A stretch of DNA of 64,000 nt from contig JBAZNP010000001.1 in NCBI GenBank assembly GCA_041649155.1, positions 302,564-366,563 of the forward strand, read 5' to 3'. Of this stretch, positions 4,531 through 61,997 are shown piece by piece. The position numbers and the translations under genes are program-made. The notes beneath the pieces are model-generated. The model searched no databases. It had not been told where the DNA came from and saw nothing but the letters and a program-made list of their open reading frames with translations. Each line of letters opens with the position of its first letter. Within the stretch, counting starts at the first letter, position 1. Source of the stretch: Patescibacteria group bacterium (GTDB lineage Bacteria > Patescibacteriota > UBA1384 > XYA2-FULL-43-10 > 1-14-0-10-43-13).

Positions 4531-6445
4531 TCTTCAAGACATATTCGCAATTTGCAAAATATTTTTAATACTATTTTTGAGTTGTTTTGCGTTTTACTAC
4601 CCGCTCGTTTTTCTAACTAAAAATAGAAAGATATCTGCTGGTCTATCAATACCCATATCCTTGTCATTTGAAATAATTATTGGTTATATTTTTTATACTC
4701 TTGGAACCATCAAACAGTTTCCTATATACTACTTACTTTTAATCATTGTTCTTAACATAGTTTTTACCATTCTAATTAGGCAAAAAAGAATTGTGATTAA
4801 AGAAAAGGTTATAAACCTTAACTATAAGAACTTTTTCTTGATGGCCATGTTGGCAATACCAGTACTATTCACGCGTTTTTATGATGCCATTAAAAATGTT
4901 GCTCCAGGCGGTATCGATACGTTTGCTCACATCGCTCTGCTAAAGCAACTAGATGAAATCGGTTACTTGGGTGATACTTTTTATGCTCCAGGTTTTCACC
5001 TGATCATGTATCCCCTCACAAGATTTGTAGACTATGCTGACATTTATCGATTTGCAGGCCCCGCGATAGGAGTAATAATCGTTTTATCTTTTTGGCTGAT
5101 TATGAGATTAATCCTTAAAAATAAGATTGTCTTAGTTGTTGCTGTGTTATTATTATGCCTTCCGGTTTTCAATCAATTAATTCTTCAAATGATCTATTTT
5201 TTTCCTTCAGCTCTAACATTCACATTTTTACTCGGTTCAATTTATCTTCTCCTTTCTCCTAAAGAACTTTCTACAAAATTGAAACTACTGCTCTACTTAA
5301 TCATTTCTATTGGGATATCATTTTCTGTGCCTTATTTTTTTATTGAATATATCGTAGCAATTTTAGCTTTAGTTATTATTTCGATTTTTGCCTCATTTCG
5401 CGATCCTAAATACAAAAAGTTTCTATTCATTGTCTTTTTTATAATATCTTGTTTCGGACTATTTCTTTCTTTAGGTCATGTTTATCTGCAGACGAAACTT
5501 CATAAAGGAGGTTTCCCCGAAATTGCAATTGCCAAAAATCAAGGAGGAAAAATTGTTAGCAGTATAAATACCGATATAGATGATGCTAAGACAGATAATA
5601 AATTAGGACTAGTAGCAAAAAACAGCTTTAATGTTTGCGCCTTCTTATCAAAAGGACTTTTTGCAAAAAAATATCTTTTTCCTGTTTGCCAGACAGGGAA
5701 AGATGTATTAAATATCAAAAATATTCGTGAGCCAGCAGGTTTACTATCTGTGGGAGCCTATTTATGGATTGTTGTTTCGTTGCTTATGCTTTTTTATGGA
5801 ATAAAGAGACGAGACCAGAAGAAAGTCGTTTTTGCTGTTTTTAGCTTGGTTTACGGAATATCAACCCAAACTGGAATTTTAGAAATGAGCTATTATCGCG
5901 GTCGTAGCGGCTGGTATCTTCTCTTTCTGTCGATATTAGGCATATCATCTATAATAGATGAATTACCGCTGAAGAAAATTTCAAAACCAGTATGCTTTTT
6001 TTCTATTCTATTATACCTTCTCGCCTTCACATCTCCACCTGTTTTTTATCGTGCCTATTTCACAGAACCGTTTCTTGTCGCATACAACGCAATAAAAGAA
6101 AACCCTCAAGACAAATTAGTATTCATCACAAATCAGAAAAATTTAACCTTATTGTCAGACAATGTTTCTGTGCTAAACTTACAAAAAACCTCGCTTAATC
6201 AAATAAGTTCAAAAGAGAAAGCATTTGTTGTGTTAGATAAGAAATTCTTTCAAAAAGATCCCGTTCTCTCTCAACAAGCATTATCAATTGATAAGGGATA
6301 TAAACAATTTAGTTCGCAACAAAAACTCCAACAAAAAATACAAGAAAACACTAATTCAGAAATAAAATCCTCCCTTGAATTTTCCAATTATGCGATCTAC
6401 TGGGAAAACGATAATATAGAAGTTTATCAACTAAAGAAAGAGTAA
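4520..6445 (+). CDS. Polytopic membrane protein, putative GT-C fold glycosyltransferase (ArnT/PMT-like) using a polyprenol-P-sugar donor
   Basis: 641 aa with ~11-13 predicted TM helices followed by a soluble C-terminal domain. The context (GT2 polyprenol-P sugar synthase plus small membrane protein upstream) supports the call. No motif-level proof. Confidence 0.4.
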   Translation: MFINLQDIFAICKIFLILFLSCFAFYYPLVFLTKNRKISAGLSIPISLSFEIIIGYIFYTLGTIKQFPIYYLLLIIVLNIVFTILIRQKRIVIKEKVINLNYKNFFLMAMLAIPVLFTRFYDAIKNVAPGGIDTFAHIALLKQLDEIGYLGDTFYAPGFHLIMYPLTRFVDYADIYRFAGPAIGVIIVLSFWLIMRLILKNKIVLVVAVLLLCLPVFNQLILQMIYFFPSALTFTFLLGSIYLLLSPKELSTKLKLLLYLIISIGISFSVPYFFIEYIVAILALVIISIFASFRDPKYKKFLFIVFFIISCFGLFLSLGHVYLQTKLHKGGFPEIAIAKNQGGKIVSSINTDIDDAKTDNKLGLVAKNSFNVCAFLSKGLFAKKYLFPVCQTGKDVLNIKNIREPAGLLSVGAYLWIVVSLLMLFYGIKRRDQKKVVFAVFSLVYGISTQTGILEMSYYRGRSGWYLLFLSILGISSIIDELPLKKISKPVCFFSILLYLLAFTSPPVFYRAYFTEPFLVAYNAIKENPQDKLVFITNQKNLTLLSDNVSVLNLQKTSLNQISSKEKAFVVLDKKFFQKDPVLSQQALSIDKGYKQFSSQQKLQQKIQENTNSEIKSSLEFSNYAIYWENDNIEVYQLKKE

Positions 6446-33216: not shown

Positions 33217-33281
33217 CAGATATTTATTGAATACTTAGCGCCAATTTGATATCTTTTAATCATATAAATAAAGGAGTCTAT

Positions 33282-34166
33282 ATGAAAGGTATTATTTTAG
33301 CTGGTGGGAGCGGTACCCGTCTCTATCCAATGACAATGGCAATGAGTAAGCAGCTTTTGCCGGTATACGACAAGCCAATGGTTTATTATCCTCTTTCTGT
33401 TCTTATGCTGGCTGGCATTAAAGATATCTTAATAATTTCAACTCCTCACGATCTGCCAAATTTTAAAAAATTATTAGGCAATGGTTCAAATTATGGAATC
33501 AACCTTTCCTATGCCGAGCAACCTTCTCCAGACGGATTAGCCCAAGCTTTTCTAATCGGCGAAGAATTCATCGGAGATGATGATGTTGCCTTAATTTTAG
33601 GTGATAATATTCTCTACGGTAGTGGCTTAACCGGTCTTTTAAAAGAGGCCGTTGAAAATAAGGGCCGCGCTACAATTTTCGGATATTATGTAAACGATCC
33701 GGAGCGATTTGGTATTGTAGAGTTCGATAAATCCGGTAAAGTTTTGTCAGTCGAGGAGAAGCCAACCGATCCAAAAAGCAACTACTGCATTATCGGCCTG
33801 TATTTTTATGATAACAAGGCTGTGCAGAATGCTAAAAAAGTTAAACCGAGCAACCGTGGAGAACTGGAAATCACAGCGCTAAATCAAATCTACCTGGACG
33901 AGGGCAAACTTGATGTTAAATTACTTGGACGTGGCTTTGCATGGCTCGACACTGGAACAGTTGACTCTTTGGTGCAAGCCAATGAATTCATACGAATTGT
34001 TGAAGAAAGACAAAATGTAAAGGTTGCGGCTCTTGAAGAAATTGCCTACAACAACGAATGGATTTCAAGAGAAGAATTGCTTGAAGCTGCAGACCGATAT
34101 GGTAAATCACCTTACGGCGCATATCTTAAAAAAGTGGCCGAAGGCAAAGCCCAAATTACACAGTAG
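33282..34166 (+). CDS. rmlA: Glucose-1-phosphate thymidylyltransferase
   Basis: [18 protein letters not shown] is the canonical RmlA N-terminus. Confidence 0.9.
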
Positions 34167-34181
34167 AATTGAGGAATGTTT

Positions 34182-34727
34182 ATGAAAATTGAAAAGACAA
34201 AATTGGATGGTGTTTTTATTATAGAGCCAGACGTTTTCGGAGATGATCGCGGCTGGTTTACAGAATCTTACAATAAACAAAGATTGAGAGATTTTGGGAT
34301 TGACATTGATTTCGTGCAAGACAATCACTCTTTCAGCTCTCAAAAAGGAACTCTGCGTGGACTTCATTTTCAAAATAGTCCTCACGCACAATCCAAACTT
34401 ATCAGATGCACAAAAGGAGAAGTACTTGACGTTGCAGTTGATATACGAAAAGAATCCTCTACTTACAAACAATGGATTTCCGTTGAACTAACAGAAAAAA
34501 ACAATAAGCAACTCTTTATACCAAAAGGGTTCGCTCATGGATTTATCACGCTCACAGACAATGTTGAATTTCAATACAAAGTTGATGAATATTATAACAA
34601 GGAAGCCGATCGAAGCATTCTATATGACGATCCCGAAATTGATATCGATTGGCAACTAGATGATTTAATACTGTCCGACAAAGATAAAGATGCGCCTTTG
34701 CTTAAGGACAGTGATTGTAATTTTTAG
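34182..34727 (+). CDS. rmlC: dTDP-4-dehydrorhamnose 3,5-epimerase
   Basis: RmlC cupin motifs: FIIEPDVFGDDRGWF...RGLHFQ. Confidence 0.85.
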   Translation: MKIEKTKLDGVFIIEPDVFGDDRGWFTESYNKQRLRDFGIDIDFVQDNHSFSSQKGTLRGLHFQNSPHAQSKLIRCTKGEVLDVAVDIRKESSTYKQWISVELTEKNNKQLFIPKGFAHGFITLTDNVEFQYKVDEYYNKEADRSILYDDPEIDIDWQLDDLILSDKDKDAPLLKDSDCNF

Positions 34728-34736
34728 GAGAAAATA

Positions 34737-35750
34737 ATGAAAATCTTAGTTACCGGCGGTGCCGGATTTATTGGTTCAAACTTTATTCTTCACATGATGA
34801 AGAAATATCCCGACTACAAAATAGTTAATTTGGATAAGTTAACTTACGCTGGAAATCTGGATAACTTAAAGTCTGTTGAAAATAATCCAAATTATACTTT
34901 TATCCATGGAGATATTTGCAATCGGGATACAGTCGAAAAAGCAATGGATGGGTGCGATATGGTCGCTCACTTTGCAGCCGAATCACACGTTGACCGTTCA
35001 ATCACCGGACCGGCAATTTTTGTTGAAACAAACGTGATAGGAACTCAGGTTTTGCTTGACGTTGCCAAAGAAAAGAAGATTAAGCGTTTTCACCATGTAT
35101 CGACGGACGAGGTATTTGGAACACTCCCTTTGGATAATCCTGAAAATAAGTTTAACGAGAGCACTCCATATCAACCACACTCACCCTACTCCGCTTCAAA
35201 AGCAGGATCAGATCATATCGTTCGCGCTTATTTTGACACTTACGAATTGCCCGTAACCATTTCAAACTGCACTAATAATTACGGGCTTTACCATTTTCCG
35301 GAAAAAGCAATTCCCCTCTTCATTACAAATGCGATGCAGGACAAGCCGCTGCCAATTTACGGCTCAGGAAAAGCAATCAGGGATTACTTATTCGTGACCG
35401 ATCATTGCGAGGCAATAGATTTAATTATGCACAAAGGTAAAGTCGGCGAAACATATTGCGTCGGTGGCGATTCCGAGAAAAACGGTATCGAAGTAGCTGA
35501 TACTGTTTTGAAGTTATTAGAAAAGCCGCTATCCTTAAAAACATATGTGGAAGACCGCAAAGGCCACGATATGCGCTATGCTATGGACCACTCAAAAATC
35601 ACACGGGAATTGGGCTGGAAACCATCTGTGACCTTTGATGAAGGTATTAGAATTACTATTGAATGGTATAAAATGAACGAGGGCTGGTGGAAAAATATTG
35701 TTTCAGGAGAATATCTAGACGCCAACCGAGAACAAGCAAACAATAAATAA
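34737..35750 (+). CDS. rmlB: dTDP-glucose 4,6-dehydratase
   Basis: MKILVTGGAGFIGSNF...YSASK. Confidence 0.9.
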   Translation: MKILVTGGAGFIGSNFILHMMKKYPDYKIVNLDKLTYAGNLDNLKSVENNPNYTFIHGDICNRDTVEKAMDGCDMVAHFAAESHVDRSITGPAIFVETNVIGTQVLLDVAKEKKIKRFHHVSTDEVFGTLPLDNPENKFNESTPYQPHSPYSASKAGSDHIVRAYFDTYELPVTISNCTNNYGLYHFPEKAIPLFITNAMQDKPLPIYGSGKAIRDYLFVTDHCEAIDLIMHKGKVGETYCVGGDSEKNGIEVADTVLKLLEKPLSLKTYVEDRKGHDMRYAMDHSKITRELGWKPSVTFDEGIRITIEWYKMNEGWWKNIVSGEYLDANREQANNK

Positions 35751-35813
35751 TTTTAGCTATTTATTGTATTATCATTTCGACTCCTTGGCTTTGTCCAAGG
35801 GTGGAGAAATCTT

Positions 35814-36590
35814 ATGAATAAATTAACCTATAAAAGATCCCTCCACTCCGGTCGGGATGACACATTTATGAAAAAAATATTACTTGGCCTGACCACAACT
35901 CCCGGTTCTGATTGGCGAGAAAAAGTTAAAGAAATTGACGAACTTGGTATTAAGGAAATTGCATTGTTTCCGACTTTTTTAAAACACGAGGAAAGGAAAA
36001 TTCTTTACAACCTTCTTGAGAAATCTAAAATTAAATTAATTCCACATGTTCACATAAGAACAGACATGGACGTCGAAGAAGTGATTTATCTGAAAGAAAG
36101 ATTCGGTTCATATTTATTTAATACGCATGCCAATCCTGAATGGATAAATAAAATACTTGAATATAAAAAGGCCAATCTTAAAATCTTTTTGGAGAATACT
36201 AGTTTATTGTGCCTACAAGAGATTGAAAAACACATTAGAGAAGTGGACGGCCTCTGTTTGGATTACTCTCATTGGAAAAGCAAAAAGCTATTGAGAGAAG
36301 AAGACTATGATTTACTAATGAAAAGACTAGTCGATCATAATAAAATCGGCTGTTGCCACATATCGGCAATCTACAATAAACCAAAAGAAATGAGCTGGAG
36401 CACCGAAAGTCCTCATTACTCTGGGCATTACATGTATAAATTATCTGATCTGGATTACATGAAAAGTTATGTGCAATACTTGCCAGAAATTATTAGCATT
36501 GAGCTTGAAAATTCATTTGAGGAGCAGTTAAAGGCAAAAGAATATGTTGAAAAGCTGATAACAATGAACGGTCAGAAGCAACCTATTTAA
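35814..36590 (+). CDS. Hypothetical protein, possibly a TIM-barrel sugar-modifying enzyme, inserted in the rml operon
   Basis: 258-aa ORF. Likely start is MKKILLGL at 35868. No recognisable motif. Confidence 0.4.
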   Translation: MNKLTYKRSLHSGRDDTFMKKILLGLTTTPGSDWREKVKEIDELGIKEIALFPTFLKHEERKILYNLLEKSKIKLIPHVHIRTDMDVEEVIYLKERFGSYLFNTHANPEWINKILEYKKANLKIFLENTSLLCLQEIEKHIREVDGLCLDYSHWKSKKLLREEDYDLLMKRLVDHNKIGCCHISAIYNKPKEMSWSTESPHYSGHYMYKLSDLDYMKSYVQYLPEIISIELENSFEEQLKAKEYVEKLITMNGQKQPI

Positions 36591-36593
36591 TGT

Positions 36594-36621
36594 GTCATCC
36601 CAGACTTGATCTGGGATCCAG
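36594..36621. repeat. Family-A palindromic repeat unit (GTCATCCCAGA-CTTGA-TCTGGGATCCAG)
   Basis: Hairpin with an 8-bp stem. Same unit type as 61900, 44305 and 45315. Confidence 0.7.
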
Positions 36622-36624
36622 AAT

Positions 36625-36942
36625 ATGAAAAATTACTTTGTCTATATCCTGACAAGCAGAAGAAACGGCACATTATATATTGGCGTTACGAATAATTTAA
36701 TTAGAAGAGTTTGGGAACACAAAGAAAAATTAGTTGATGGTTTTACAAAAAAGTATGACATTAATAAATTGGTTTATTATGAAATGACCACGGATATTGA
36801 AGCAGCAATTAGCAGAGAGAAACTGTTAAAATCTTGGAATAGAAAGTGGAAAATGGAATTAATTGAGAAGGTAAATCCAAACTGGAATGATTTATATGAT
36901 GAATTGGTAAATACTGGATCCTCGGGTCAAGCCCGAGGATGA
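36625..36942 (+). CDS. GIY-YIG nuclease family protein (UPF0213/YhbQ-like)
   Basis: YFVYILTSRRNGTLYIGVTNNLIRRVWEHK is the GIY-YIG motif. The last 9 codons are encoded by the flanking palindromic repeat. Confidence 0.8.
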   Translation: MKNYFVYILTSRRNGTLYIGVTNNLIRRVWEHKEKLVDGFTKKYDINKLVYYEMTTDIEAAISREKLLKSWNRKWKMELIEKVNPNWNDLYDELVNTGSSGQARG

Positions 36943-36943
36943 C
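36916..36943. repeat. Family-A palindromic repeat unit, inverted orientation (GGATCCTCGGG-TCAAG-CCCGAGGATGAC)
   Basis: Its reverse complement differs by 1 nt from the unit at 44305-44332. Confidence 0.7.
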
Positions 36944-36985
36944 GAAGTGGAGTTTATGATGACGATATAAAAAAGGAGTTAAACC

Positions 36986-37864
36986 ATGAAACAAAAAGTC
37001 TTAGTTACCGGCGCTAAAGGCCAGCTTGGTAAGAAAATAATAGAAATGCTGGGCAATGATTATGAATTAGTTCTAACAGATTCAGAGGAGATGGATATTA
37101 CCGATAAAGAGAAGGTTTTTGAGGTTATTAGCGAAGTAAAACCTGACTTTATAATTCATGGAGCCGCATATACCAGAGTAGATGATGCAGAGGAAAAAAT
37201 CGATTTATGTCGCAAGATTAATGCCGAGGGATCAAAAAACGTCGCTCTTGCAGCCGAAGCAAATCATACAACATTGTTGTATATTTCAACCGATTTTGTG
37301 TTTGATGGAAAGAAAAAAGCTCCTTACACCGAAGAAGATGAGACTAATCCAGAGTCAATTTACGCAAAAACAAAATTGGAAGGCGAAAATTATGTCAGAG
37401 AATATTGTTCAAAATATTATATCTTCAGAACTGCATGGCTTTTTGGTGAGTTACCGGAAGGTCATCCTGGCACCAATTTCGTAGAAGCAATGCTTAAACT
37501 AGCATCGGAAAGAGATTCTTTAAATGTGGTAAGTGATCAAATCGGATCGCCAACATATACAGGAGATCTGGTTGCTGCAATGAAAAAAATTATCGAGAGT
37601 GATAATAGAGCTCCTTACGGAATTTATCATGTTTCAGGAATCGGAGAGGCTTCGTGGTTTGATTTCGCCAAAGAAATATTTAAACAGACAGATACTCAAA
37701 TCGACCTGAAACCAATTTTTTCCGATCAATATCCACAAAAAGCAAAACGACCTTCGTACTCATATTTAGACAAATCCAAGATAGAAAAGGCGCTAGACAT
37801 CAAAATTCGCCCCTGGCAAGAAATGCTACACGATTATTTACATAATCGGCTCAAAAATGAATAA
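36986..37864 (+). CDS. rmlD: dTDP-4-dehydrorhamnose reductase
   Basis: MKQKVLVTGAKGQLG, 292 aa, RmlD family. Confidence 0.85.
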   Translation: MKQKVLVTGAKGQLGKKIIEMLGNDYELVLTDSEEMDITDKEKVFEVISEVKPDFIIHGAAYTRVDDAEEKIDLCRKINAEGSKNVALAAEANHTTLLYISTDFVFDGKKKAPYTEEDETNPESIYAKTKLEGENYVREYCSKYYIFRTAWLFGELPEGHPGTNFVEAMLKLASERDSLNVVSDQIGSPTYTGDLVAAMKKIIESDNRAPYGIYHVSGIGEASWFDFAKEIFKQTDTQIDLKPIFSDQYPQKAKRPSYSYLDKSKIEKALDIKIRPWQEMLHDYLHNRLKNE

Positions 37865-38551: not shown

Positions 38552-39307
38552 ATGCTTGATGTTAAAATCGAGAAAATTTTGCCGGTAACTGAAGCAAGAG
38601 ATTCTTTTAATAAGTTGATTGATGAGGTGGAAAGCAGCGACGAACTTTATGTATTAACAAAAAACGGCAAGCCTGCTGCCGTATTAGTAGGCGTACATCA
38701 TTTAGAAAAATTAACCGGAACAAGCGAGGAGGAATTAATGGATCAAACAAATCAAAATGCAGCCAGTGATGCAAATGCAGTGCCTGTCACAACAGATGAC
38801 ACCACGCAAACAATAAGTGCTACACCGGCAACCGACATGCCAGAGCAATCAACGGAGGAGGCAACTCCCCCTATAGTTCCTGCGGTCGAAGAAAATAATT
38901 CGGCAATGCCTTTACAATCCGCTATGACAAATAACTCTGCAGAGGAAACCGCTCCTTTAACATCGGCAGCGCCAATTGAAAATATTGCTGCTGAAACTCC
39001 GATCACTGAACCGCAAACATCAGGAGCTACTGCTGATCCTTTGAGCAGTATTAATCAAACTGCTAGTGAGGCGACAACAGCACCTGCTAATAATGCCCCC
39101 GTCGAAGATCCGCTTGATTTTTTAAGCGATAATTCTGACCCGATATCACTAGCCTCAGAAGGTCCTGTATCGGCTCCCGATGCCGCAATGAGCGCTCCAG
39201 CTGCAATGCCAACCGAGGCGCCAGCAGCAACAGAACCAGCACCGGCAGCCCCTGTTCCAACCACAGAAACACCGGCTAATCCGACAACTCCCCCGATTGG
39301 TCAGTAG
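38552..39307 (+). CDS. Phd/YefM antitoxin-like N-domain fused to a ~190-aa Ala/Pro/Thr/Glu-rich disordered tail
   Basis: N-terminal ILPVTEARDSFNKLIDEVESSDELYVLTKNGKPAAVLVGVHHLEKL matches the Phd/YefM fold signature. The remainder is low complexity. Confidence 0.55.
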   Translation: MLDVKIEKILPVTEARDSFNKLIDEVESSDELYVLTKNGKPAAVLVGVHHLEKLTGTSEEELMDQTNQNAASDANAVPVTTDDTTQTISATPATDMPEQSTEEATPPIVPAVEENNSAMPLQSAMTNNSAEETAPLTSAAPIENIAAETPITEPQTSGATADPLSSINQTASEATTAPANNAPVEDPLDFLSDNSDPISLASEGPVSAPDAAMSAPAAMPTEAPAATEPAPAAPVPTTETPANPTTPPIGQ

Positions 39308-43494: not shown

Positions 43495-43542
43495 CACAAT
43501 TAAAATATCACAAGAGAGCTTTAAGCGCCAGAACCAATATTT

Positions 43543-43615
43543 GTCATTCCCGTGTAGACGGGAATCTACTAAAAGATATAAAACTATCTTGGATCCCCGC
43601 CTTCGCGGGGATGAC
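43543..43615. repeat. Family-A composite element (two inverted hairpin units plus 21-bp spacer), intergenic between valS and tsaD
   Basis: GTCATTCCCGTGTAGACGGGAATCTAC ... GGATCCCCGCCTTCGCGGGGATGAC. Confidence 0.8.
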
Positions 43616-43632
43616 ATGGAAAATAAGAAATG

Positions 43633-44832
43633 TCATATCTCTAAATTTGAATTGATTTCAATGTCTTTCCATGTTGAAATATTTTTCTTTTGAATATGGT
43701 AGTAAGCCGCTAGCCCGATCATTGCGGCATTATCACCACATAAATTTTTAGGCGCAGGTAAAAATTTTATACTGTTATCTGTTATCTGTATTCTGTATGC
43801 TAACTCGCTTCTCAAGCGAGTATTGGCAGCAACTCCTCCGGCCAGCACAACTGCTTTCGGCTCAAATTTCTCCACTGCCCTCATCGTTTTTGTAACCAGC
43901 ACATCAACAACAGCATCCTCAAAAGCAGCACAGATCTCTTCCTTTTGATCTTCCGAAATTAATCCCTGCTTTCTTGAATCAATCACTTTCTGGAGTACTG
44001 CAGTCTTAAGCCCAGAGAAAGAAAAGTTAAAAGTTCCATTATTCAGGATTGGTCTCGGAAAAATAATCCCTTCTCTGCCCTCTACCTTCCCCTTTCTACT
44101 TCTAAACTTGCTTGCGAGCTTAGAAACCACTGGTCCACCTGGATAGCCTAGCCCGAGCAACTTAGCCACCTTATCAAAAGCTTCGCCTGCCGCATCGTCT
44201 AAAGTCTGCCCGATCGTTTCGTATTCTCCATGATCTTTCATAAGTGTCAGCGAAGTATGACCGCCACTTACAGTTAATGATAAGACTGGAAATTGACACG
44301 AAGTGTCATCCTCGGGCTTGACCCGGGGATCCACTAATAGTAGATTCCCGCCTTCGCGGGAATGACAATAAGCGAAAGCGGAGTATATGTGTCCTTCTAT
44401 GTGATTTACGGGAATAATCGGCTTATCCAAAGAATAAGCCGTGGCCTTTGCAGCATTAAATCCGACTAAAAGAGATCCGATTAAACCTGGACCATTAGTA
44501 ACGGCAATGTGAGTGATATCATTCTGAAGCACTTTTATAGCCTCAGAATAGTTACTAGTTCCTAGTTTCGAATCATTAGAATCCTTGTAACTAGTGACTT
44601 GTAGCTTGTTACTCGCCTGAATCAATGCTTCCGTTATCACTGGAATAATATTTTCCATATGAGCACGACTGGCCACTTCAGGTACGACTCCGCCTGTTAT
44701 CGCATGCAAATCGACTTGAGAATTTACAATATTTGATAGAACAATAGGATTGCCATCTTTTTCGCCAATTACAGAAGCAGCCGTCTCATCGCAGCTCGTC
44801 TCAATAGCTAATATTTTAATATCTTTTTTCAT
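43633..44832 (-). CDS. tsaD: tRNA N6-adenosine threonylcarbamoyltransferase TsaD/Kae1, carrying in-frame repeat insertions
   Basis: ILAIETSCDETAASV...GGVVPEVASRAH...NGPGLIGSLLVG...SGGHTSL. At 399 aa it is ~60 aa longer than a typical TsaD. Confidence 0.85.
   Translation of the reverse strand: MKKDIKILAIETSCDETAASVIGEKDGNPIVLSNIVNSQVDLHAITGGVVPEVASRAHMENIIPVITEALIQASNKLQVTSYKDSNDSKLGTSNYSEAIKVLQNDITHIAVTNGPGLIGSLLVGFNAAKATAYSLDKPIIPVNHIEGHIYSAFAYCHSREGGNLLLVDPRVKPEDDTSCQFPVLSLTVSGGHTSLTLMKDHGEYETIGQTLDDAAGEAFDKVAKLLGLGYPGGPVVSKLASKFRSRKGKVEGREGIIFPRPILNNGTFNFSFSGLKTAVLQKVIDSRKQGLISEDQKEEICAAFEDAVVDVLVTKTMRAVEKFEPKAVVLAGGVAANTRLRSELAYRIQITDNSIKFLPAPKNLCGDNAAMIGLAAYYHIQKKNISTWKDIEINSNLEI
43771..43800. 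repeat. Family-C repeat copy (ACTGTTATCTGTTATCTGTATTCTGTATGC) inside tsaD
   Basis: Near-identical to 60617-60647. Inverted copy at 45554-45580. Confidence 0.6.
44305..44366. repeat. Family-A composite element inserted in-frame within tsaD
   Basis: GTCATCCTCGGGCTTGACCCGGGGATCCAC TAATAGTA GATTCCCGCCTTCGCGGGAATGAC. Translated as ...AYCHSREGGNLLLVDPRVKPEDDTSCQF... Confidence 0.8.
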
Positions 44833-45194: not shown

Positions 45195-45314
45195 TATAGC
45201 ACCTCTCTGTCGACACTAAAACTATACCATTTACGCTCGATTAAAGCAACGAAGTTTGTTGGTTATCCTCCCCTCGACTTGCTAGGGCTAATTTGATACT
45301 CTAAAAGTGACGTA

Positions 45315-45381
45315 GTCATCCCCGCGAAGGCGGGGATCCATAAAACTATTTATATAGATTCCCGATCAGGTCGGGAATGAC
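45315..45381. repeat. Family-A composite element overlapping the annotated start of the femAB-like gene
   Basis: GTCATCCCCGCGAAGGCGGGGATCCA TAAAACTATTTATATA GATTCCCGATCAGGTCGGGAATGAC. Confidence 0.8.
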
Positions 45382-46375
45382 ACATGGAATGAATTCATCA
45401 ATCTATCAAACCCCCGAGTGGGAACAATTCAAGCTTAAAACCGGATACGAGAAAAGCTACCGTATTGAAGACATTTTAGTATTGCAAAAAAAGTTACCTT
45501 TCGGCAGAACCATGCTTTACTCACCAATGGTGAGCGAGCACCAGCTCGCTGGTATTCAGAATGCAGATAACAGAATACAGAAAGATTTTGTAACTGGAAT
45601 AAAAAAGGTTGCGGAAGAAAATAATGCAATATTTTATCGCTTAGAATTAGATATTCCAAAAGAACTTTCCACTTTCCACTTTCCACTTTCCACTCGAAAC
45701 TTTCAAAAAAGTTTCGAAGAGATGCAGCCTGAAAATAATTGGGTGGTTGATATTACAAAAACCGAAGATGAAATACTGGCTCAAATGAAGCAAAAAGGCC
45801 GATACAACATTAGAGTGGCAGAGAAAAACAATATCGAGATAACATCATCAGACAAAGCTGGGAAAGAACTGGATGTTTTTTACGATCTGTATTCAAAAAC
45901 CGGCAAACGAAAAGGCGTTACCTATAGAGGCAAGGCATATTTCGAAAATCTGCTTGATATTTTAGGCAAAATTGACTATGCTAGAACGTACGCCGCTACA
46001 GCAAAAATCAACAGTAAAACTGTTCCCCTTGCTGCTGCTGTCATAATTTTTTATAAAAAAGAAGCGCTCTACCTCTACGGCGGATCAAGCGACGAATATA
46101 AAAATTTGATGGCTCCTTACCTTCTCCACTGGAAAATCATGCTTGATGCGAAAGAAAAGAGAATTGAAAAATACAATTTTCTAGGCGTGGCTCCCGCCGG
46201 AACAAGCCCTCTGGGCGAGGCCACTGACGACCCTTCCCATCCATGGGCCGGCATCACAAGATTCAAAAAACAATTTGGCGGTGAACAGAAAGATATTCTG
46301 GGCAGTTACGATTTAATCCTGAAGCCGCTTGAGTATCAATTGTTTAAAATAGCAGAAAAAATAAGACGCAAATAA
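45377..46375 (+). CDS. FemAB-family peptidoglycan aminoacyltransferase
   Basis: KQKGRYNIRVAEKNNIEI and YLLHWKIMLDAKEKRIEKYNFLGV match FemXAB signatures. The true start is probably the ATG at 45389, because the track start lies in the repeat. Confidence 0.65.
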   Translation: MTHGMNSSIYQTPEWEQFKLKTGYEKSYRIEDILVLQKKLPFGRTMLYSPMVSEHQLAGIQNADNRIQKDFVTGIKKVAEENNAIFYRLELDIPKELSTFHFPLSTRNFQKSFEEMQPENNWVVDITKTEDEILAQMKQKGRYNIRVAEKNNIEITSSDKAGKELDVFYDLYSKTGKRKGVTYRGKAYFENLLDILGKIDYARTYAATAKINSKTVPLAAAVIIFYKKEALYLYGGSSDEYKNLMAPYLLHWKIMLDAKEKRIEKYNFLGVAPAGTSPLGEATDDPSHPWAGITRFKKQFGGEQKDILGSYDLILKPLEYQLFKIAEKIRRK

Positions 46376-61870: not shown

Positions 61871-61899
61871 GCTTGGGCAGCAAGCTAATCACATAATGC

Positions 61900-61997
61900 G
61901 TCATCCCAGACTGTGACTTGAGATCTGGGATCCAGTAGAGAATTCAACCTCACCTAGCCTCTCCTTCGAAAGGAGAGGAATTATATCAGAATGACAA
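61900..61997. repeat. Family-A composite element (~98 bp): GTCATCCCAGA...TCTGGGATCCAG, second hairpin CCTCTCCTT-CGAA-AGGAGAGG, then ...AGAATGAC
   Basis: Left unit near-identical to 36594-36621. Terminal GTCAT...ATGAC inverted ends. Confidence 0.65.

Follow-up and report, generated by a model that had tools for sequence, protein, structure and literature searches.

The best-described relatives of the locus considered here are the Ssn nucleases and the hairpin repeats that they recognize (Chenal et al. 2025, Nat Commun 16:2388, PMC11893778). Ssn proteins are single-domain GIY-YIG proteins of about 94 amino acids (CDD cd10448) that bind a hairpin repeat solely in single-stranded DNA, and on one strand only, and cut a few nucleotides 5' of it; the repeat, called NTS, is CGTCATTCCCGCGMAVGCGGGAATCYRG, and its general form is the Ssn-related motif, SRM (PMC11893778). 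In Neisseria meningitidis Ssn activity lowers transformation by repeat-bearing DNA, and of the Ssn homologues 71% lie within 5 kb of one or more SRMs and 42% are flanked by SRMs on both sides; the authors liken the NTS-ssnA-NTS arrangement, as a hypothesis only, to an insertion sequence and to the REP/RAYT systems (PMC11893778). A literature search found no later paper on Ssn or SRM. We analyzed a 64,000-nucleotide stretch of a Patescibacteria genome (assembly GCA_041649155.1, contig JBAZNP010000001.1, positions 302,564 to 366,563; "the window" below) in which positions 36593-36943 form a cassette of 351 bp that begins with GTCAT, ends with ATGAC and has inverted termini. This cassette is very probably an SRM-ssn-SRM arrangement, with a gene for an Ssn-family single-stranded DNA endonuclease lying between two outward-facing cognate repeats, and it is an example of the system described in 2025 rather than a new kind of element. 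The association of gene and hairpins, visible from raw sequence, is the one that defined the Ssn family; it is sound but not a discovery. What the comparisons add here is evidence that gene and flanking hairpins behave as a single 351-bp unit, that the unit ends where the characterized enzymes are predicted to cut, and that the hairpins are invariant while the gene drifts; it also extends Ssn/SRM to the Patescibacteria, with a doublet of repeats in frame in tsaD.

The locus shares with the published system a single-domain GIY-YIG protein of about 95 amino acids in which the essential Tyr, Tyr and Glu are kept, hairpins of the form GTCAT-stem-loop-stem-ATCYRG at the gene, and further repeats dispersed in the genome. 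It differs in its host, which belongs to a group absent from the paper, in that the units of the window consistently form outward-facing pairs, in the in-frame doublet in an essential gene (NTS repeats within genes amount to 2% in N. meningitidis; PMC11893778), and in a left unit whose stem departs from the strict published pattern.

Positions 36593-36621 read tGTCATCCCAGACTTGATCTGGGATCCAG (the left unit without its first flanking base, 36594-36621, + strand, is GTCATCCCAGActtgaTCTGGGATCCAG) and are followed by AAT and then by the ATG of the open reading frame (ORF). The ORF ends with ...ACTGGATCCTCGGGTCAAGCCCGAGGATGAC, running to 36943, and the right unit, read on the minus strand of 36914-36943, is GTCATCCTCGGGcttgaCCCGAGGATCCAG. 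Both units fold as DNA hairpins of 8-9 bp (-7.2 kcal/mol for the left; -10.1 kcal/mol, z=-4.4, for the right), and 292 bp including the gene lie between them. The right unit is an exact match to the published degenerate SRM motif. A sequence-only reading of this stretch had placed a GIY-YIG ORF exactly between two inverted "family-A" units, and it does lie there (36625-36942, between 36594-36621 on the + strand and 36914-36943 on the - strand), taking the place of the 5, 12 or 19 nt that separate the units of other pairs in the window. The same reading was right that the left unit is nearly that at 61900 (stem and flanks are identical, and the 61900 loop is 8 nt longer), that the right unit is one base from a unit inside tsaD (44305-44332), and that the 3' end of the ORF is encoded by the repeat, since the right unit supplies the codons for GSSGQARG as well as the stop, TGA. 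A promoter and terminator scan found none specific to the cassette (its hairpins have no T-run), and because neither a promoter nor a terminator of its own was identified we propose that ssn is probably co-transcribed with the surrounding rml operon. An Rfam scan of the whole window assigned the hairpins to no family.

Pfam PF01541 (GIY-YIG) matches residues 3-77 of the 105-residue protein (E=1e-15), and the AlphaFold model is a single compact domain with a mean pLDDT of 90.7. Because residues 99-105 have pLDDT below 50, the repeat-encoded C-terminal tail is outside the protein fold in this model. A gapless alignment of the protein to an SsnA orthologue from Neisseria gonorrhoeae covers 90 of the 94 residues of the latter with 52% identity (E=2e-38, 110 bits; hhalign probability 100%) and is within the limits by which the paper defines homology (E<1e-10, with more than 75% of the query aligned). 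The N. gonorrhoeae protein stands in for N. meningitidis SsnA in this comparison; it was obtained by tblastn of a plasmid collection (PLSDB), which returned NZ_CP119140.1, a 2.17-Mb chromosome filed as a plasmid, and its orthology to NMV_0044 is deduced from protein length, the flanking NTS repeats and where Y6, Y17 and E64 lie. Downstream of its 94-amino acid ORF come CGTCATTCCCGCTCAGGCGGGAATCCGG, an NTS copy with a single mismatch, and then additional exact NTS copies. Residues Y7, Y18 and E65 of the window protein align with SsnA Y6, Y17 and E64, each of which abolished SsnA cleavage when mutated (PMC11893778), and all three are invariant in an alignment of 40 homologues. The nuclease had been called "Slx1/YhbQ-like", and this holds at the level of fold, where the nearest solved structures are the UPF0213 protein 1zg2 (BH0048; E=1.7e-4) and then Slx1 (a search of PDB sequences with the nuclease gave no match, no Ssn protein has an available structure, and these folds are distant). 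It does not hold for the sequence family: E. coli YhbQ is 26% identical (E=5e-6) and scores 28 bits against the 110 bits to SsnA, so that on alignment scores the protein is of Ssn type and not of YhbQ/Slx1 type. The UPF0213/YhbQ and Slx1 proteins are distant in sequence and are not known to be accompanied by hairpin repeats; the substrate of Slx1, which works with Slx4, is branched duplex DNA. The nuclease has 4881 database homologues, and the N- or C-terminal extensions of many of them are translated hairpin (WIPAYAGMT, SFP..GESRE, GSSGQARG, GFPDQVGE, WIPSQAGNDK).

The flanking hairpins are a general property of these genes. We examined 80 genomic ssn loci from many phyla (L001-L080), 78 of which are covered by a relaxed hairpin scan and 64 by a count of stop codons. 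With the strict motif, a repeat lies within 150 bp upstream of the gene at 37 of the 80 loci, downstream at 38 and on both sides at 23; 90 of the 140 matches are no more than 150 bp from the gene, the upstream ones mostly on the gene strand and the downstream ones mostly on the opposite strand. With the relaxed scan, outward-facing units are present on both sides at 49 of 78 loci (63%) and at least one unit is present at 68, while random placement in the same loci gives both-sided outward units in 0.18%; GIY-YIG genes flanked by GTCAT...ATGAC hairpins are thus found elsewhere. The units have a cross-phylum consensus, [T/C]GTCAT[T/C]CC...GG[A/G]ATCCAG with a G-poor 5' flank, and their stems covary (7.85 of 8 positions are paired, against 6.52 when arms are permuted among the hits, with a maximum of 6.80 in 1000 permutations). 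The right cassette unit itself also flanks ssn at another locus (L008), and the stop codon of the gene is the TGA of the terminal ATGAC at 17 of 64 loci, as it is in the window. The 12 nt 5' of GTCAT, in these loci and in metagenome doublets, are G-poor and often CT-rich; in several GC-rich contigs (L092, L190, L206 and others) this flank is mirrored, the inverted repeat reaching 10-15 nt past GTCAT, and the mirrored region is the one in which cleavage by Ssn is reported.

Gene and flanking hairpins together make up a discrete unit of 351 bp. The closest homologue of the protein (P0002, 82% amino acid identity) lies in a different context, beside a TrmB-family gene. In that copy of the cassette (L081/L082) the DNA homology with the window begins with tGTCAT, ends with ATGAC and goes no further, the flanks having random identity (8/40 and 12/40); an end of homology exactly at the hairpin termini argues for gene and hairpins travelling together. 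The 45 differences in 351 positions are all inside, that is, 45 in the internal 292 (15.4%) and none in the 59 of the hairpins (29/29 identical on the left, 30/30 on the right), which at the internal divergence has a probability of about 5e-5. An all-against-all blastn comparison of unrelated genomes likewise confines homology around the gene to roughly -35 to -60 and +30 to +75.

Several points weigh against the identification as an Ssn gene between its own repeats. The 52% identity is below the 60% of the paper's stricter screen. The left unit misses the strict published SRM pattern, with an A where G or C is expected in the stem (CCCAGA), although it has the GTCAT, an 8-bp stem and the ATCCAG tail and agrees with the cross-phylum consensus. 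The two cassette hairpins differ in the inner stem, so that a single enzyme for both is an assumption, and in N. meningitidis SsnA a change in the palindrome that kept the structure abolished activity (PMC11893778). Cleavage has been demonstrated for the Neisseria and Wolbachia enzymes only (PMC11893778). Finally, the NTS repeats beside ssnA of N. gonorrhoeae NZ_CP119140.1 (L087, 1355-1958) have GTCAT toward the gene, the opposite of the orientation in the window cassette and at most of the 80 loci, and among the matches listed three of the four ssn-adjacent exact copies of the right unit in metagenomes have the Neisseria orientation.

The cassette is not alone in the window. A structural scan for GTCAT followed by a hairpin yields nine clean units, every one of them in an outward-facing pair, so that outside the cassette there are four doublets (Table 1); five units agree with the published SRM pattern, against 0.09 expected from 100 dinucleotide shuffles. 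The partner of the unit at 61900 is a different hairpin (CCTCTCC/GGAGAGG). The doublet within tsaD (ORF 43633-44832, minus strand) is in frame and encodes the peptide CHSREGGNLLLVDPRVKPEDD, which in an alignment corresponds to about 20 residues without counterpart in the Thermotoga maritima TsaD structure (6n9a_D). The same protein has a second insertion, of about 30 amino acids at residues 68-102, that is not repeat-derived. The three doublets between 43543 and 45381 each consist of one unit of the form GTCATCC...GGATCC (ATCC-type) and one of the form GTCATTCCC...GGGAATCTA (ATTCC-type), whereas both units of the cassette are ATCC-type. Such mixed doublets might reflect another cognate nuclease, encoded elsewhere in this genome, or a rule by which doublets are built; the 64-kb window holds no second ssn copy.

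Table 1. Repeats of the cassette, other hairpin units and genes of the rml operon in the 64-kb window.
Feature	Position	Strand	Details	Context
left SRM hairpin unit	36593-36621	+	tGTCAT-CCCAGA-cttga-TCTGGG-ATCCAG	GTCAT is the outer cassette edge
ssn gene	36625-36942	+	105-amino acid single-domain GIY-YIG nuclease; core residues 1-95 are 36625-36909	
right SRM hairpin unit	36914-36944 (including flanking c)	-	cGTCAT-CCTCGGG-cttga-CCCGAGG-ATCCAG	GTCAT is the outer edge
SRM doublet	43542-43616		+ unit 43543-43569, - unit 43589-43615, 19-nt spacer	between tsaD stop and class I aminoacyl-tRNA synthetase start
SRM doublet	44304-44367		+ unit 44305-44334, - unit 44340-44366, 5-nt spacer	inside tsaD
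SRM doublet	45314-45382		+ unit 45315-45341, - unit 45354-45381, 12-nt spacer	directly upstream of FemAB-family gene
SRM unit and partner	61899-61995		unit 61900-61935 (+); partner ends with ATGAC 61991-61995	intergenic
rmlA	33246-34166		Pfam	
rmlC	34176-34727		Pfam	
rmlB	34737-35750		Pfam	
degenerate 89-nt imperfect palindrome	35772-35861		aTCATTTCGAC...GTCGGGATGAC	between rmlB and 240-amino acid ORF
240-amino acid ORF, function not assigned	35868-36590	+	no Pfam match; 451 homologues, mostly in Patescibacteria	
rmlD (dTDP-4-dehydrorhamnose reductase)	36986-37864	+	Pfam RmlD_sub_bind, E=7e-99	

Beyond this genome the exact 28-nt right unit is present in at least 120 contigs of metagenomes, and the organisms concerned include AT-rich as well as GC-rich ones. 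Among the matches listed there are 131 occurrences, 64 of them in outward doublets and four next to ssn, and one doublet type with a constant 35-nt spacer (GGGGCTTTCAGAGC.GCTCTCGGTGGCCCC) has seven different flanks (L111, L130, L132, L162, L176, L181, L185), the pattern expected of a dispersed, replicating unit.

The cassette lies within the rml operon, as the sequence-only reading had it, but at the junction of the 240-amino acid ORF and rmlD and not between rmlB and rmlD. It begins 3 nt past the stop codon of that ORF, and the rmlD start is 42 nt beyond its end, with the Shine-Dalgarno sequence and start of rmlD intact. Two related genomes (L085 and L086) have the gene order of the window, rmlA-rmlC-rmlB-ORF-rmlD-GtrA-PhdYeFM-like-VTT, without the nuclease gene. 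Because the 240-amino acid ORF holds the same position there in the absence of ssn, it counts as a regular operon gene, and only the 351-bp cassette is inserted. In L085 the ORF homologue overlaps rmlD; in L086 the two are separated by 187 bp that hold a GTCAT...ATGAC doublet (4779-4898) of a different, longer-hairpin variant, which suggests repeated colonization of one gap. Contig CAYIJI010000006.1 (L086) shares its assembly, CAYIJI01, with one of our ssn loci (L009), judged from the contig accessions, so that this genome appears to have the nuclease elsewhere and an empty rml site. Presence or absence of the cassette in relatives can thus be seen across syntenic rml operons, in genomes that share about 60% protein identity with the window, but not at strain level: a search of JGI metagenomes for the two flanks separated by 0-30 nt found no empty allele. 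The imperfect palindrome at 35772-35861 folds with -15.2 kcal/mol (z=-3.2) and is probably a decayed doublet of the longer-hairpin variant. The start at 35814 that gene callers give to the 240-amino acid ORF reads into this palindrome (peptide SGRDD), and the NCBI start at 35868 (240 amino acids) is more likely the better one.

By extension from the Neisseria and Wolbachia enzymes, the window protein would bind each hairpin in single-stranded DNA only, on the 5'-GTCAT-stem-loop-stem-ATCCAG-3' strand, and would cleave a few nucleotides to the 5' side of GTCAT. With outward-facing units, cleavage is predicted outside the element: one nick per strand just outside the cassette, and likewise outside every doublet. 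These predicted positions would coincide with the ends of the cross-genome homology. The most likely role here, by analogy with Neisseria, is to cut single-stranded DNA that bears the hairpin when DNA is taken up, replicated or repaired. The logic of such a system would resemble that of REP/RAYT or REPIN/RAYT, with one to a few nuclease genes per genome, each flanked by its own hairpins, and many dispersed doublets.

A more ambitious possibility, which we hold to be tentative and rather unlikely, is that the cassette and doublets form a genuine family of mobile elements powered by a GIY-YIG nuclease of single-stranded DNA; the nuclease would be the transposase of an autonomous transposon, and the short doublets would be its miniature inverted-repeat transposable element (MITE) derivatives, spread to intergenic and coding sequences. 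A mobile element was also what the sequence-only reading proposed, and part of that stands: the cassette is discrete, with exact GTCAT/ATGAC boundaries in unrelated contexts, the rml site of relatives is unoccupied, and doublets are dispersed. One metagenome-assembled genome has two diverged ssn copies (L004 and L010), the doublets with the 35-nt spacer have the seven flanks given above, the cuts predicted for Ssn fall at the ends of the element, and the likeness to an insertion sequence was remarked on by the authors of PMC11893778. On the other hand, no target-site duplication abuts the cassette termini (the two cassette copies have unrelated flanks), no empty allele was present in the metagenomes searched, and ssn can be stable, with synteny kept for more than 1 kb in Thiobacillus and between two deltaproteobacteria. 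A tblastn search of 50,697 phage records gave no match, and of the 33 plasmid records matched, which include large replicons and mislabelled chromosomes, 32 are typed as non-mobilizable and one as conjugative. Each element, moreover, has one cleavable unit per strand. GIY-YIG nucleases are hydrolytic and form no covalent intermediate, and we know of no strand-transfer or rejoining step in their action; because of this chemistry such an enzyme could not rejoin strands alone. The simple model in which doublets are internal deletions of the cassette was rejected, as no window doublet combines the CCCAGA left and CCTCGGG right units; each of the mixed doublets pairs an ATCC-type with an ATTCC-type unit and so does not derive from the cassette by deletion, and the proposal that the short composites are its non-autonomous derivatives fails on this mismatch of unit types. 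A speculative route for mobility would be that strand separation between the nicks leaves each flank with one full element strand as a 5' overhang, that fill-in synthesis makes two copies, and that host repair or recombination joins them. Were it true, such a nuclease would join HUH transposases and DDE enzymes as a third route to hairpin-ended prokaryotic transposons, and doublets would be able to enter even essential coding sequences in frame in the compact genomes of Patescibacteria.

Somewhat less probable again is that other machinery mobilizes or generates the repeats and that Ssn is a host or selfish nuclease merely targeting them; it would then restrict incoming single-stranded DNA or control the repeats, and the flanking units would reflect autoregulation or a hitch-hiking insertion preference. 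The function shown in Neisseria is indeed restriction of transforming single-stranded DNA and not transposition, the partner units of the doublets are heterogeneous, and the synteny of ssn in some lineages fits this as well. Against it, the published screen found the association in no other gene family (PMC11893778), the units of the 64-kb window abut a single enzyme gene, and the cassette homology that ends at the hairpin termini argues for gene and hairpins moving together. This compact genome offers a clean substrate set for deciding between restriction only and repeat dispersal as the business of Ssn.

That ordinary REP-like repeats happen to lie on both sides of an unrelated small gene is very improbable. 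The exact right unit adjoins ssn in only 4 of the 131 metagenome occurrences listed, and the four window doublets sit beside unrelated genes; the sequence-only reading would have taken family-A repeats equally frequent beside unrelated genes, along with other GIY-YIG copies in the genome that lack hairpins, to mean simply a REP element next to a gene. Most of the repeats do lie beside unrelated genes, as REPs do with respect to RAYTs, but this is non-discriminating, and the informative statistic is that ssn genes are almost always flanked by units. Chance adjacency is refuted by the locus statistics (outward units flank the gene on either side at 63% of 78 loci but in 0.18% of random placements) and by hairpins that are perfectly conserved beside a gene that has diverged by 15%; in addition, an unbiased proteome-wide screen picked out ssnA (PMC11893778). 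A free-standing or intron-encoded homing endonuclease of the I-TevI kind has a negligible chance of being the right description, since the sole NCBIfam match, to the group I intron endonuclease TIGR01453, is at 20.9 bits well below the cut-off of 56 and was rejected, the protein is a single 95-amino acid domain without a DNA-binding extension, Rfam places no intron or other RNA family at the locus, and the phage records searched gave no homologue.

Taken as an Ssn nuclease with its cognate repeats, the locus can be compared with other hairpin systems. In REP/BIME or REPIN elements with their RAYT (TnpA-REP) genes (Nunvar 2010, PMC2817692; Ton-Hoang 2012, PMC3333891; both as cited in PMC11893778), a low-copy nuclease gene likewise lies between inverted copies of the hairpin that its product recognizes in single-stranded DNA, and many dispersed copies, mostly inverted doublets, are present. 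The enzyme there is an HUH/Y1 transposase, unlike the hydrolytic GIY-YIG protein of the window with no covalent intermediate, so that our system works like REP/REPIN-RAYT but is no member of it. The "peel and paste" elements IS200/IS605 share subterminal hairpins that are recognized in single-stranded DNA and a cut a few nucleotides outside the hairpin; their end hairpins are on the same strand, however, and are served by a Y1 transposase, whereas the window units are inverted and the window protein has no Y1 domain and a different fold and chemistry. The Rickettsia palindromic elements (PMC10969869) resemble the tsaD doublet in being short palindromic repeats in frame in a housekeeping gene, at a tolerant loop, but they are about 150 bp long and, as far as compared here, unrelated in sequence.

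Two further features of the window are noted here. A protein of 251 amino acids encoded at 38552-39307 has L085 and L086 orthologues that carry a PhdYeFM antitoxin-type domain; here it has a long Ala/Pro/Thr-rich low-complexity tail, and its position beside the rml operon is kept in the relatives. An S-adenosylmethionine (SAM) riboswitch, RF00162, lies at 1086-1215 on the minus strand (56.1 bits) and is the sole Rfam family in the window.

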